Position numbers and translations under genes: made by a program. A model generated the notes under the pieces. The model made no database searches. It was not told the DNA's origin and was given only the letters and a program-made list of their open reading frames with translations. Shown here in pieces: positions 7,808 to 11,980 of a DNA stretch of 64,000 bases; position 1 is the first letter of the stretch, and each line of letters opens with the position of its first letter. Source of the DNA: a virus. Location: positions 11,781 to 75,780 of the IMG/VR virus record IMGVR_UViG_3300002542_000355. One strand, written 5' to 3'.

Positions 7808-8056
7808 TTATAAATTCATTTGTCGTTCGTAACGATCAATTGCAGAATCATATACTTTGTCTTCAAATTGTTTGCTGTTAAGATATTCTTCATAGTTAAA
7901 ATTGGGATCATAGGAAATAATGTCAATTCCCATATTATCATAAATAACCATCACTTCAGCATTCGTCAATCCATGCTCTGGTGAATTTATACAACGTTCA
8001 AAAACCACTTCCGCAGGATAGTTTTCAATGTCAATAATAGTTTTATAAAGAATCAT
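7808..8056 (-). CDS. hypothetical protein
   Basis: ORF with RBS GGAGG. Confidence 0.75.
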   Translation of the reverse strand: MILYKTIIDIENYPAEVVFERCINSPEHGLTNAEVMVIYDNMGIDIISYDPNFNYEEYLNSKQFEDKVYDSAIDRYERQMNL

Positions 8057-8127
8057 TTTATATCGCCTCCAAATATAATATTTGATATTATTTAAAATAA
8101 AAAACAGGCAATAAGATGGAATACTTG

Positions 8128-8313
8128 TTATTTGGTTGCTGATTGTTCATTTTGCGCTGTTATAATTTGCATTGCTTCATGTCCGTATAGTACAGACATG
8201 CAATGTTTACATTGAAGCGCAGGAATGTTGTTATTGTTTTTGTTAACTGTTATTTGTATGAATCCTCTATTTCCGCACTCAACGCACAACAAATTGTTAA
8301 TATCTGTAGTCAT
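8128..8313 (-). CDS. YgiT-type zinc-finger protein, putative antitoxin
   Basis: CVEC...CKHC zinc ribbon directly downstream of a DUF4258-like gene. Confidence 0.55.
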   Translation of the reverse strand: MTTDINNLLCVECGNRGFIQITVNKNNNNIPALQCKHCMSVLYGHEAMQIITAQNEQSATK

Positions 8314-8336
8314 GTTATCACCCTTTTTTATTGTTA

Positions 8337-8642
8337 TTAATGATTATATAGTTTATTTATGACTGTAACAACATGTATTGTCCGTGTTTTTTCGTCAATT
8401 ACAAAAACAATATGTTTGTTTTTATCACTCCCATGAATTTTATATGCGTAATATCTCTTTTCTGTTAAACGAATGTCTAATAATTCAATAGGATTCGACA
8501 GCGCATTTATTATATCATCATATGATATTTTACGTTGTTCCATGCGTTGTTCGGCGTGTTCTGTTATGTAAATATTATGTAAATCCTTGGATAGTATCCG
8601 ACAGACCGTAAATAATTGTTCTTGATTAAGTCTTATTGCCAT
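8337..8642 (-). CDS. DUF4258-like (RelE-superfamily) putative toxin/RNase
   Basis: ITEHAEQRMEQRKISYDDIINAL...HIVFVID...VVTV matches the DUF4258 pattern. Confidence 0.65.
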   Translation of the reverse strand: MAIRLNQEQLFTVCRILSKDLHNIYITEHAEQRMEQRKISYDDIINALSNPIELLDIRLTEKRYYAYKIHGSDKNKHIVFVIDEKTRTIHVVTVINKLYNH

Positions 8643-8665
8643 GTTATTCCCCCCGTTCTGTTATT

Positions 8666-8738
8666 CGCAACCTAGACCGCTGTTATATGCGGTCTAACGC
8701 TTCCGGCTTAATGCGCTGTTTAGAGTCGCCGGAACGAC
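8666..8738 (-). ncRNA. pistol self-cleaving ribozyme
   Basis: Minus strand reads AGUCG UUCCGG CGACU CUAACAG CGCA UUAA GCCGGAA GCG UUAGACCGC auauaaca GCGGUCUAG G^U UGCG. P1, the loop pseudoknot (UUCCGG/CCGGAA), P2 (CGCA/UGCG), P3, and the conserved UUAAG, GCG and G^U are all present. Confidence 0.88.
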
Positions 8739-8740
8739 TG

Positions 8741-9073
8741 TTAAACTGTTACACACGTCAAACCTTTTTGCCATATATGGTTAGAAATAGCTTGTAAATT
8801 GTGTTTCATTCCTTCCATCCAGTCATAAATATTATCTTGTTCCGTCCATGTGAATATGATAACTACTTCTCTATTCTCGATATCCAGTTTGTAATTTTTT
8901 ATATAGTGCAAGTCAGGAGATGAAACATCATTGATTAGATTTTCGACATATTCAAATATCAATTTTTTGTTACGTTTAATATATTGTTTTTGCGTTCCTT
9001 CTCCGTCCCAATCGTCGAGCAATCTAGAAATAATGGGACGAACATTGATGATGATTTTTTTAGTCATAGTCAT
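8741..9073 (-). CDS. hypothetical protein, paralogue B of 9917-10252
   Basis: MTMTKKIIINVRPIIS..; near-identical to the upstream copy, including the RBS. Confidence 0.85.
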   Translation of the reverse strand: MTMTKKIIINVRPIISRLLDDWDGEGTQKQYIKRNKKLIFEYVENLINDVSSPDLHYIKNYKLDIENREVVIIFTWTEQDNIYDWMEGMKHNLQAISNHIWQKGLTCVTV

Positions 9074-9094
9074 GTTATCACTCCTTAATCATGC

Positions 9095-9319
9095 TCAATC
9101 ATTCCAAAATACTAGGCAAGAAACGTCGATCCCGTGCGCCTGCGCTTGGGCAAGGATTTCAGCTTTCAACGCGTCATACGTCCCGGTTTCATCACCTTCC
9201 ACCGGCGGCATCTCGGCATACAACTCGATTCCATCCACGTCGGCCTTCATGAAATCGACGCCAACGCCGGGATTTTCCCGGCTTTCTCCAGAACCGTAAT
9301 AAACCAGATGCTTTTCCAT
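9095..9319 (-). CDS. hypothetical protein
   Basis: RBS AAAGGGTG; GC-rich ORF directly downstream of hammerhead 1. Confidence 0.75.
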   Translation of the reverse strand: MEKHLVYYGSGESRENPGVGVDFMKADVDGIELYAEMPPVEGDETGTYDALKAEILAQAQAHGIDVSCLVFWND

Positions 9320-9348
9320 ATCTAATCACCCTTTCATAGTTTTGCGGC

Positions 9349-9426
9349 TTCCCGCGACCGGGACAAGCCCGGTTTCGGCCCGTAGCCAGCGGGCCCAAAG
9401 GCGCCTTCGCGCTCGTCAGGCGGGAA
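9349..9426 (-). ncRNA. type I hammerhead ribozyme 1, with an extra hairpin between core and stem II
   Basis: UUCCCGC CUGACGA [GCGC-GAAG-GCGC CUUUG] GGCCCG-CUGGCUA-CGGGCC GAAAC CGGG-CUUGU-CCCG GUC^ GCGGGAA; predicted cleavage between 9356 and 9355. Confidence 0.85.
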
Positions 9427-9589
9427 TGCGTGTTACAAAAGCAACTGCATATCCGTGTGACTCGACAATCTTTCTTGCTTCCTTTTTTCCGTCCGCCATG
9501 ACTTCGATCATCTTCCCGCAGCGAGTGTATACTTGATGTTTAGCACAACGGAATTTGTATTCGGCTTGTGGTCCAATTCTGTTATACAT
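9416..9589 (-). CDS. hypothetical protein whose stop codon lies in the hammerhead 1 core
   Basis: RBS GGAGGG before ATG at 9589; ends ..TRIPA-TGA. Confidence 0.7.
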   Translation of the reverse strand: MYNRIGPQAEYKFRCAKHQVYTRCGKMIEVMADGKKEARKIVESHGYAVAFVTRIPA

Positions 9590-9647
9590 GGTCAATCCCT
9601 CCAATTCGTAAACGGAAAAACTGATAACTTATGTTCAAGATAAACAT

Positions 9648-9893
9648 TCAAAAACTTGCAATAAAGTCACTAAAAAAATGATGAAATGTGCGAAAAAGTT
9701 CTCCATTTTTGTAAATGTTGTTTTCTACTCTCATGTTTTGCGAAAAACAATAATTGTCATTGAGCATAAGGACATAACTTTCAGCAACGTCTTCCGTCAT
9801 ATTCTCTTTTTGTTCAAGAATGTTGCCGTATCCGTCGTATAATGTGACAGAAACAATTCCGGTATCAATATTTTCGTTAATTTGCATCCACAT
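9648..9893 (-). CDS. hypothetical protein
   Basis: RBS GGGAGG before ATG at 9893 (the ORF track extends to 9950). Confidence 0.65.
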   Translation of the reverse strand: MWMQINENIDTGIVSVTLYDGYGNILEQKENMTEDVAESYVLMLNDNYCFSQNMRVENNIYKNGELFRTFHHFFSDFIASF

Positions 9894-9916
9894 TTGTTTG
9901 TTCCTCCCATATATTT

Positions 9917-10252
9917 TCATTTTACTATGCATGTCAAGCCTTTTTGCCATATATGATCAGAAATGACTTGCAAATTAAGTTTCATTCCTTCGCACCAGTC
10001 ATAAATATTGTCTTGTTCTATCCAAGTGTATGTTATTATCACTTCCCTATTTTCAATGTCTAATTTGTAACTATTGATATATTGTAAATCATAAGGGACC
10101 GAAATGTCATTGACTAGATTTTCAACAAATTCAAGTATCAGCTTTTTGTTACGTCTGATATATTGACTTTGTTTTCCTTCTCCGTCCCAATCGGCGAGAA
10201 GATTTGAAATGATAGGACGAACATTGATGATGATTTTTTTAGTCATAGTCAT
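9917..10252 (-). CDS. hypothetical protein, paralogue A of 8741-9073
   Basis: RBS AAGGAG before ATG at 10252; MTMTKKIIINVRPIIS.. Confidence 0.85.
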   Translation of the reverse strand: MTMTKKIIINVRPIISNLLADWDGEGKQSQYIRRNKKLILEFVENLVNDISVPYDLQYINSYKLDIENREVIITYTWIEQDNIYDWCEGMKLNLQVISDHIWQKGLTCIVK

Positions 10253-10277
10253 GTTATCACTCCTTAATATGTACAAA

Positions 10278-10475
10278 TCAGACGGTATTTCTTCTTCGTT
10301 CTTCCGGTAACTCCGTGAAGGTCAACACGTCTTCGAGTGTTGCGCCGACGGGATCAAAAGTTTCGCCGTCGTCTGTCGTAAACCTGACTACTACGTTACC
10401 TTCAACGGTGTAGTATCCGCTGTAAGTCACGTTGTTAAGACCGACATACTCACCATCGAAGTAACGTTTTGCCAT
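10278..10475 (-). CDS. hypothetical protein
   Basis: RBS GAGGGAG; directly downstream of hammerhead 2. Confidence 0.75.
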   Translation of the reverse strand: MAKRYFDGEYVGLNNVTYSGYYTVEGNVVVRFTTDDGETFDPVGATLEDVLTFTELPEERRRNTV

Positions 10476-10508
10476 TTTTGTTCACTCCCTCATTTGATTT
10501 TGCGGCTT

Positions 10509-10565
10509 CCCGCGACGCCCTTATGGGCGTTTCGACCCGGAGCCACCGGGCCATCGTCAGGCGGG
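10509..10565 (-). ncRNA. type I hammerhead ribozyme 2
   Basis: CCCGC CUGACGA U GGCCCGG-UGGCU-CCGGGUC GAAAC GCCC-AUAA-GGGC GUC^ GCGGG; predicted cleavage between 10514 and 10513. Confidence 0.9.
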
Positions 10566-10853
10566 GTTCCTTCGACGTTCGCGCCGCTCTTGCAGTTTTT
10601 TATACGCCGAAAGAACTTGCGGATACCATTGGTTATTCGGCTCAACGTAAATTCGATCCTTTTCGAAATAATCCGTCATCGTGTCCGTGTTGTTTATTGT
10701 ACGTAGACCCGGAATTTTCGGGAAACTCTCGTAATCCTTCGCGCGAATGATGATCGTTCCTTCCGGCATGTTTCGGGAAGTACACGGCCAGTAATAGGCG
10801 CGATACAGTTTGCCGTCAACCTTTATGCCGTTGTACATGAATTTTACTTGCAT
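10557..10853 (-). CDS. hypothetical protein whose stop codon lies in the hammerhead 2 core
   Basis: RBS AGGAGG; ends ..RRRNPA-TGA. Confidence 0.8.
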   Translation of the reverse strand: MQVKFMYNGIKVDGKLYRAYYWPCTSRNMPEGTIIIRAKDYESFPKIPGLRTINNTDTMTDYFEKDRIYVEPNNQWYPQVLSAYKKLQERRERRRNPA

Positions 10854-10963
10854 TGTTTGTTCCTCCTATGTAATATTTTATTTTTTTGGAGCGTCCAACA
10901 CTCCATAAGGCGCACAACGTGGCTGTTATGCGCCATTTGCAATGTTGGACAATTAAATAAAAT

Positions 10964-11212
10964 CTATTCATGGTTAAAAACTGTTTTTAGAAAATTATTT
11001 TCGATTTTTGTTAGTTTTTCAGTTAAATTTATAACACTGTTATCTTTTTTTAGTTCGTTAATTATATATTTTATTTTTTCATTTATTTCTGCTTCATTCT
11101 TTGCAAATGCTGTTATTGTTGCATTATTTTTTGAGTTATAACCACTTAAACCAATCTTTCCAAAAACATTTTTTTTCTTGATTGTAATATAATCATTTTG
11201 ATAAATAATCAT
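10964..11212 (-). CDS. hypothetical protein
   Basis: RBS AAGGAGG. Confidence 0.7.
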   Translation of the reverse strand: MIIYQNDYITIKKKNVFGKIGLSGYNSKNNATITAFAKNEAEINEKIKYIINELKKDNSVINLTEKLTKIENNFLKTVFNHE

Positions 11213-11234
11213 TTTTGTGCCTCCTTTTTTATTT

Positions 11235-11470
11235 TTATTCCGCTTTTTCTATCCCCTTGCATTATTATTTTTATTCTTCTTAAATAACTTCACTCCACGT
11301 TTTGCCATGTTTAAATAATAACCATTGTTCTAAAGTGTCAAAAAACATATCAAGTTCTTTGTCATAAAAACCTACATTTTTATCATGTTCTAATTTATCC
11401 ATATCTTTTAAAATAATTGTTTTCATTATTATTTCTCCCTTCTTGCAAGGGGACAGAAAAAGCGGAATAA
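11235..11470. repeat. 27-bp inverted repeat (11235-11261 and 11444-11470) flanking a 48-aa ORF
   Basis: ttattccgctttttct(a/g)tccccttgca versus its reverse complement; the single difference is a G-U pair in the minus-strand RNA. Confidence 0.85.
11280..11426 (-). CDS. small hypothetical protein (48 aa), first ORF of the early transcript
   Basis: Not in the ORF track. RBS AAGGGAG; MKTIILKDMDKLEHDKNVGFYDKELDMFF..EVI*. Confidence 0.65.
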   Translation of the reverse strand: MKTIILKDMDKLEHDKNVGFYDKELDMFFDTLEQWLLFKHGKTWSEVI

Positions 11471-11980
11471 TGTGGGGGTTGTGCCGGACTCCTACCGTGC
11501 CTATATGATACGAAATAAGCGTACCCTTTCAAGTCAGATAGCTGACTAGGGGCTTTTTTGACGGTATATCTCGCTCATACAGTCGCCTCCGTGGACTCCC
11601 CAGGTTCCACGAAGTGCTGCCACGCTGTTTCGTGTACGGACAGCCTGTCCACATTTTGACAAGCTGTTGTAACGTGGATCGCCGTTTCCACGCACGCGAA
11701 TAACTCGCGTGTAAATAATATTTTATTTTCAAAGATCAGCCCTTGCGCCGTTCAGCTTGCGCTGTTCAGCGACTTCCCCGGATGCTAGTGCAAGCTATCT
11801 TGCGTTCGCATCCTGCCAAGTAACTATGTAGGGAATTGATTCAGCGTGCTAGACGTTTTCAATGTCTTCCCCTTTGATCGGATTCGTTGCCGTCCGTATC
11901 GCTTGATACGGTATAAGCAGTCCGAGCAGGGAGGGAAAGTGATTGTCGTCGTTGCTGTTGTTCAATTCCTTTTATTGTTT
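11430..11980 (-). ncRNA. long structured 5' leader RNA with boxA-like motifs
   Basis: GC-elevated, hairpin-rich stretch with no credible ORF, between a strong promoter and the first RBS; GAUCUUUGAAAA at 11737-11726 and GACAUUGAAAAC at 11866-11855. Confidence 0.6.

Follow-up and report, generated by a model that had tools for sequence, protein, structure and literature searches.

Stop codons of upstream genes within the cores of predicted type I hammerhead ribozymes in a phage operon

The locus studied here raises the question of why two phage genes should both end inside the catalytic core of a hammerhead ribozyme. The window, a stretch of 64,000 nucleotides (positions 11,781 to 75,780 of the IMG/VR virus record IMGVR_UViG_3300002542_000355), carries two hammerhead elements, HH1 and HH2, between small genes on the minus strand. 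The original prediction, made from the letters of the DNA, was that the UGA of each core doubles as the stop codon of the gene upstream, and that a terminating ribosome might thereby gate cleavage. What genomic hammerheads do in phages has for the most part yet to be proven. We considered these two junctions together with those of their relatives in other phage genomes.

Anatomy of the two hammerheads

Both elements present the same order of parts, namely CUGACGA, a hairpin rich in G+C, GAAA, another hairpin (this one closed by A-U), GUC and GCGGG (Table 1). The upstream ORFs, their last four codons (AAC CCC GCC TGA for P0001 and ATT CCC GCC TGA for P0002) and their overlap with the cores confirmed that the stop is in each case the UGA of CUGACGA, that is U4-G5-A6. 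The Pro-Ala codons do form the 5' strand of stem I, CCCGC pairing with the GCGGG that follows GUC in HH1 and in HH2, and the two upstream genes are indeed unrelated, as P0001 and P0002 gave no BLASTP alignment at E values up to 100. For P0001 there are 16 homologues and weak matches to PHROGs of unknown function. The downstream genes start 38 nt past the predicted cut of HH1, with GAGGGAG ahead of the start, and 36 nt past that of HH2.

Table 1. Positions of the two hammerheads, their neighbouring genes and the nearby pistol ribozyme in the window
Feature	Position	Strand	Basis or remark
Upstream gene 1 (P0001), 98 aa, C-terminus ...RRNPA*	10557..10853	(-)	ORF and translation
P0001 stop TGA	10559-10557	(-)	U4-G5-A6 of HH1 core
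HH1, type I hammerhead	10502..10565	(-)	core and helices, structural descriptor, family covariance model
HH1 stem I, 5' strand	10565-10561	(-)	
HH1 stem I, 3' strand	10513-10509	(-)	
HH1 core CUGACGA	10560-10554	(-)	
HH1 extra U	10553	(-)	
HH1 stem II	10552-10546 with 10540-10534	(-)	
HH1 loop UGGCU	10545-10541	(-)	
HH1 GAAA	10533-10530	(-)	
HH1 stem III	10530-10525 with 10520-10515	(-)	
HH1 C17	10514	(-)	predicted cut between 10514 and 10513
HH1 putative pseudoknot partner AGCCG	10507-10503	(-)	
HH1 alternative hairpin	10513-10502	(-)	5' end of 3' product
Gene downstream of HH1, 65 aa	10278..10475	(-)	ORF
Upstream gene 2 (P0002), 57 aa, C-terminus ...TRIPA*	9416..9589	(-)	ORF and translation
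P0002 stop TGA	9418-9416	(-)	U4-G5-A6 of HH2 core
HH2, type I hammerhead	9344..9426	(-)	core and helices, family covariance model
HH2 stem I, 5' strand	9426-9420	(-)	
HH2 stem I, 3' strand	9355-9349	(-)	
HH2 core CUGACGA	9419-9413	(-)	
HH2 inserted hairpin GCGC-GAAG-GCGC and linker	9412-9398	(-)	directly after A9
HH2 stem II	9395-9390 with 9382-9377	(-)	loop CUGGCUA
HH2 GAAA	9376-9373	(-)	
HH2 stem III	9373-9368 with 9362-9357	(-)	
HH2 C17	9356	(-)	predicted cut between 9356 and 9355
HH2 tail hairpin	9355-9344	(-)	
Gene downstream of HH2, 74 aa	9095..9319	(-)	ORF
ORF upstream of pistol	9073-8741	(-)	stop TAA 8743-8741
Pistol ribozyme	8666..8739	(-)	RF02679, 63.8 bits against a gathering score of 34.5

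The core positions C3, U4, G5, A6, N7, G8 and A9, then G12, A13 and A14, the A15.1-U16.1 pair and an H17 other than G are all present in HH1 and HH2. Stem I is open and stems II and III are loop-closed, which makes both elements type I, and at least one extra base stands between A9 and stem II in HH1, in HH2 and in most relatives. These relatives, more than 170 loci as a lower bound, were collected by two sequence-pattern scans of viral contigs and represent one hammerhead subfamily. A structural descriptor (the core, three helices each of at least 4 bp and H17 other than G) found at least 178 elements in phage loci totalling 1.6 Mb, whereas reversing these sequences gave none. In an alignment of 28 relatives (A5), 98.5% of cells in the three stems were paired, against about 40% in controls with slid partners, and 60 cells showed double changes against 13.9 in shuffles; because the search pattern had largely fixed stem I, this covariation supports stems II and III.

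A covariance model (R1) built from A5 without HH2 recovered HH2 at 41.9 bits (E 3e-11), placing 16 inserted bases after A9. HH1 scored 85.5 bits, a value that follows by construction from its place in the seed. Searching the window with R1 gave nothing beyond these two elements, and HH1 and HH2 are the only hammerheads of the 77.7-kb IMG/VR provirus record that contains it. Using the Rfam hammerhead models on positions 8000-11500, no match was obtained either at the gathering score or at E values up to 10, the pistol ribozyme being the only hit. The hammerhead models of Rfam release 15 miss this phage type I subfamily entirely (10502-10565 and 9344-9426), possibly because a base is added after A9 and stem I is open, and annotation pipelines that depend on Rfam will leave it unmarked.

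Hammerheads of all types are described as having a pseudoknot between stems I and II (PMC3088659), and in HH1 and HH2 a possible counterpart is pairing between the UGGCU of loop II and an AGCCG of the tail. Among the matches listed, 40 of 154 distinct ribozymes have loop II-tail pairings of 5 bp or more, against 19 with permuted tails in what is a crude test, and inspection by eye showed clear covarying loop-tail pairs among the relatives, for example GGUC/GACC and GGAUA/UAUCC.

HH1 and HH2 have in common their 5' flank and an identical 3' tail, GCGGGAAGCCGC followed by AAAA; the identical flanks, CCCGCCUGACGA and GUCGCGGGAAGCCGCAAAA, stand behind unrelated genes, and as these flanks are shared the two may not be independent events. 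HH2 differs by an insertion of 15-16 nt beside A9. Its nearest relative (L195:980-1000) carries the same inserted hairpin with the loop GAAA, and has stems II and III that differ from those of HH2 and resemble those of HH1. Since L195 keeps the insertion with an altered loop and next to other stems, we take it to be more probably a module under maintenance than a single chance defect.

Upstream stops in related phage hammerheads

At the rate found in the family (below), the probability that both hammerheads of the window share their stop is about 0.08, which is unremarkable alone. For the family as a whole, a junction was counted for each distinct upstream sequence if 200 nt or more of DNA preceded the ribozyme and if an ORF of 50 aa or longer had its end between -60 and +20. 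With redundancy removed by k-mer similarity and ORFs called by simple rules, the matches listed gave 143 non-redundant junctions, to which the following counts refer. The upstream stop lies on the core UGA (position 0) in 42 (29%) and at -9 in 23, followed by -8 (9 junctions), -10 (8), -11 (7), -4 (5) and -12 (4), with 7 more inside stem II (+10, +11 and +14); no position other than the core UGA and -9 holds more than 9 of the 143. Altogether 105 of these listed junctions (73%) have the stop at most 12 nt upstream of the ribozyme or inside it before the cut.

The coincidence of stop and core UGA therefore exceeds chance at the family level. In its descriptive part the original prediction is supported. 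Counted by elements, the core UGA is the stop of an ORF of 50 aa or longer in 54 of 179 of the matches listed, and these ORFs fall into 45 BLASTP families, which means that one ribozyme core ends many unrelated genes. Stem I sequences vary widely across the hammerhead family.

The second preferred position has a simple geometrical meaning: 17 of the 23 listed junctions with a stop at -9 have the modal 5-bp stem I, so that -9 corresponds to a stop flush against stem I. When tight junctions among the matches listed were summed by frame, roughly 69 were in the frame of the core UGA against 21 and 21 in the other two, and zero spacer was favoured about 3:1 over one or two spacer bases. We attribute this preference for zero spacer and for the UGA frame to packing, but it could also reflect selection for contact between ribosome and ribozyme. 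Among the same matches, upstream frames open for at least 100 codons numbered 25 in the UGA frame, 2 in the +1 frame and 3 in the +2 frame, and long ORFs almost never cross the predicted cut. On the other side of the cut, the first start preceded by a Shine-Dalgarno sequence lies at a median of 40 nt (interquartile range 33-51, among the matches listed; 38 and 36 nt in the window), and little more than the ribozyme and a ribosome-binding site fits between the two genes.

The ribozymes that share their stop show no sign of adaptation to use as a terminator. Tandem UGAUGA, in which N7 is U, is not enriched where the core UGA is the stop in use (19 of 42 against 54 of 101 among the matches listed, p=0.46), and we rejected the idea of a tandem-stop adaptation on this ground. 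Stem I is of similar length in overlapping and other listed junctions. The idea of an in-frame backup stop was also rejected, as the excess came only from -9 and otherwise 13 listed junctions were in frame against 39 out of frame (p=0.24). A stop on the core UGA always precedes the predicted cut, and the cleaved upstream mRNA would consequently keep a complete ORF. For gene calling and RNA annotation this means that an ORF may well end within the core of a ribozyme.

Turnover at orthologous junctions

In an alignment, P0001 and its close homologues all finish at one column, their last residues being NPA, NLA, NHA, KRA or KRS, whereas distant homologues have longer, unrelated tails and are followed by the next gene within 12-38 nt, which leaves no space for a ribozyme. 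Two orthologues (L188 and L196) keep the hammerhead with the stop in its core, which reads UGAUGA in L196; in L188 a Leu codon (CUC) replaces the Pro codon, which leaves a G.U pair in stem I. Two others (L186 and L187) keep the 5' half and the TGA and are missing GAAA, stem III and GUC. The junction at L187:1468-1560 has the appearance of a decayed hammerhead of which stem I, core and stem II remain, and at L197:902-950 there is only a fused end-piece remnant, with a TAG stop two codons earlier.

Other hairpins occupy the equivalent junction in L180-182 and L198. In L180:3298-3378 (also in L181 and L182) a recurring hairpin, CGCYCC-GAAA-GGGGCG, is followed by CGGCGCU, and the same element form is found at L193:700-740; a second small hairpin and AAAAC come after it. 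This element matched no Rfam family at E values up to 1, and an Rfam scan of the orthologous junction elements in L180, L187, L188 and L183 matched no ribozyme family.

At the place of HH2, the P0002 homologue P0020 has the same length and ends in IPQ; its stop is TAA, and next come an intrinsic terminator and a promoter close to consensus. The corresponding stretch at L183:3175-3280 (also in L184 and L185) contains the TAA, a G+C hairpin with a T run and a TTGACA/TATAAT-type promoter. Such a replacement supports a role of the ribozyme in transcript separation. Orthologues with and without ribozyme have equal protein length and differ in the last 1-3 residues (IPA against IPQ; NPA against KRA or KRS).

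Because ribozymes have been gained or lost at orthologous junctions, because L195 is a mosaic and because a terminator and promoter stand at the HH2 place, the ribozyme is seen to be a labile, mosaic module at gene boundaries, replaceable by a terminator-promoter pair. The earlier suggestion of a portable stop-plus-processing cassette is a fair description of a core that ends 45 families of genes and of mosaic modules that are exchanged or lost at orthologous junctions.

Packing, exchange and translation as possible explanations of the shared stop

We consider it probable, though well short of certain, that HH1 and HH2 serve to process the transcript between cistrons, that they are packed against the upstream genes as far as overlap is permitted, and that they are not a dedicated regulatory device. 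Judging from hammerhead chemistry and from related prophage hammerhead clusters, which cleave in vitro and in vivo (PMC3088659), the polycistronic prophage transcript would cut itself after GUC at HH1 and at HH2. The upstream product would contain the complete ORF, its stop and 43-60 nt of stems II and III with a cyclic phosphate end, and the downstream product would begin with a 5'-OH G and carry a leader of about 36-38 nt with a small hairpin at its start and the Shine-Dalgarno site at its end. The GCGG at the start of this product can fold back on CCGC into a tail hairpin, which is incompatible with stem I and with the putative pseudoknot and would thus render cleavage irreversible. A 5'-end tail hairpin of at least 4 bp is found in 112 of 154 relatives among the matches listed, compared with about 74 in shuffled controls. 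The computed energies of the active and tail-hairpin folds are -32.8 and -31.6 kcal/mol for HH1 and -40.3 and -36.1 kcal/mol for HH2.

The upstream ORFs extend through the 5' strand of stem I and stop at the core UGA, an overlap that would be permitted by a UGA that is invariant and precedes the cut, and that would be cheap because the 5' strand of stem I takes almost any codons while its non-coding 3' partner co-varies. The shared stop may then be seen as the extreme of a general flush packing, helped by the exchange of ribozyme modules at gene boundaries, and the two dominant layouts, zero spacer and sharing of the core UGA, are both extremes of compaction. The sequences directly show the anatomy, the membership in the family (on both sequence and structure), the stop positions across the family and the turnover at orthologous junctions, whereas self-cleavage in vivo, the fate of both products and the absence of a regulatory role are what we infer for this locus.

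A different origin for the same arrangement is that ribozyme modules bringing their own last codons and stop were recombined in, with the breakpoint inside the gene end and gradual loss of spacer playing a minor part. The identical flanks of HH1 and HH2 behind unrelated genes would be expected from such events, but gene conversion after insertion could also produce them. Copies within one genome have stem I and tail in common, but across the family stem I is highly divergent. In L195 the insertion of HH2 stands beside stems II and III of the HH1 kind, and orthologues with and without ribozyme differ only at their last 1-3 residues at constant length; from these junctions, however, gain looks the same as loss. 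We regard this origin as unlikely to be the main explanation, and it is compatible with packing.

The reading that accompanied the original prediction is that cleavage may be gated by translation, the terminating ribosome occluding or melting stem I and the core. As a full explanation, this would have upstream translation time cleavage or the release of the 3' product, with the shared stop selected to that end. From the established ribosome footprint, a terminating ribosome would sit over stem I and the core and reach into stem II. The predicted clash is therefore sound, and folding and termination would never be simultaneous. Moreover, flush or overlapping stops are the rule (73% of the 143 junctions among the matches listed), and since the active and tail-hairpin folds of HH1 are nearly isoenergetic and the minimum-energy fold loses stem I once more upstream sequence is included, small perturbations could switch the hammerhead fold. 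However, stops at -4 to -12 and in stem II, about 44% of the junctions among the matches listed, would produce an equal clash, so that the shared codon is not special. Nor did we see the enrichment of tandem stops or the change in stem I that selection on the codon might leave; orthologous junctions manage without any ribozyme; and a stop before the cut gives a complete upstream product in either order of events. Translation-gated cleavage, although physically plausible, thus seems improbable to us, and we prefer packing because it explains the data more simply.

Equally doubtful is a broader version, in which terminating ribosomes are part of the ribozyme cycle across the family, delaying cleavage for as long as the upstream gene is heavily translated, or else stripping the 3' product off stem I after the cut so that the tail hairpin forms and makes cleavage irreversible, with operon processing coupled to translation; gating, if true, would tie mRNA processing to protein synthesis in a simple and natural way. 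That one or both of HH1 and HH2 are inactive relics whose TGA is an ordinary stop codon, as the hammerhead remnants in L187 and L197, the large insertion beside A9 of HH2 and the lack of an Rfam hammerhead match might suggest, is very hard to credit when neither element has lost a core nucleotide or any of its three stems, when L195 retains the HH2 insertion, with another loop, next to different stems, and when candidate pseudoknot partners are present.

Nucleotides used twice at gene ends are familiar from the ATGA-type stop/start overlaps of compact operons; at HH1 and HH2, by contrast, the second user is a catalytic RNA core and not another ORF. RiboJ-type synthetic insulators place a ribozyme and a hairpin ahead of a ribosome-binding site. 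As predicted for HH1 and HH2, cleavage in these insulators fixes a short leader with the hairpin first and the ribosome-binding site exposed. Unlike RiboJ, HH1 and HH2 are natural, they overlap the upstream coding sequence, and their hairpin would compete with stem I and the putative pseudoknot.

The closest natural counterparts are the clusters of Perreault et al. 2011 (PMC3088659), in which several ribozymes likewise lie between small variable genes of one prophage transcript, have a pseudoknot between stems I and II (for which HH1 and HH2 carry candidate partners) and are proposed to divide a long transcript into gene-length mRNAs. Compared with them, the present elements are of type I with an extra U after A9, and HH2 has an inserted hairpin; the terms 'stop codon' and 'UGA' are absent from the text of that paper (PMC3088659), in which sharing of the core UGA and flush packing are not described. 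In the papers searched, among them a review of ribozyme biology, we found no prior description of a shared stop in phage hammerheads. In coding viroid-like RNAs, start and stop codons overlap hammerhead motifs (bioRxiv 10.64898/2026.09.16.752053); these are circular RNA replicons with type III ribozymes, whereas here the hosts are operons of DNA phages, and systematic use of the core UGA is not reported in that study. What the present survey adds is the flush packing of the ribozyme between stop and short leader, the rarity of ORFs that cross the cut and the replacement of the ribozyme by a terminator-promoter pair, which together support the view that these ribozymes act as punctuation splitting the operon transcript into single-gene mRNAs.

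The window also offers a comparison with another class of ribozyme, the pistol that lies in the next intergenic gap but one after HH2, two genes further on. Weinberg et al. 2015 reportedly found further ribozyme classes, pistol and twister among them, close to hammerheads in phage-like DNA. Here the pistol occupies an equivalent intergenic gap and is equally tight to the upstream stop, the TAA of ORF 9073-8741 ending 1 nt before it, but unlike HH1 and HH2 it shares no codon with the gene. Inside the same ORF, a match to the glutamine riboswitch aptamer (8989-9046, minus strand; 24.1 bits, below the gathering score of 35, with an E value of 0.044 in a 3.5-kb search) is probably due to chance. 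Among other phage pistols, 6 of 11 lie at most 7 nt from the upstream stop, which is suggestive of flush packing but comes from a small sample (12 non-redundant pistols passed the filter), and in several of the surveyed phage pistols the initial AGCCG directly follows or overlaps TAA.
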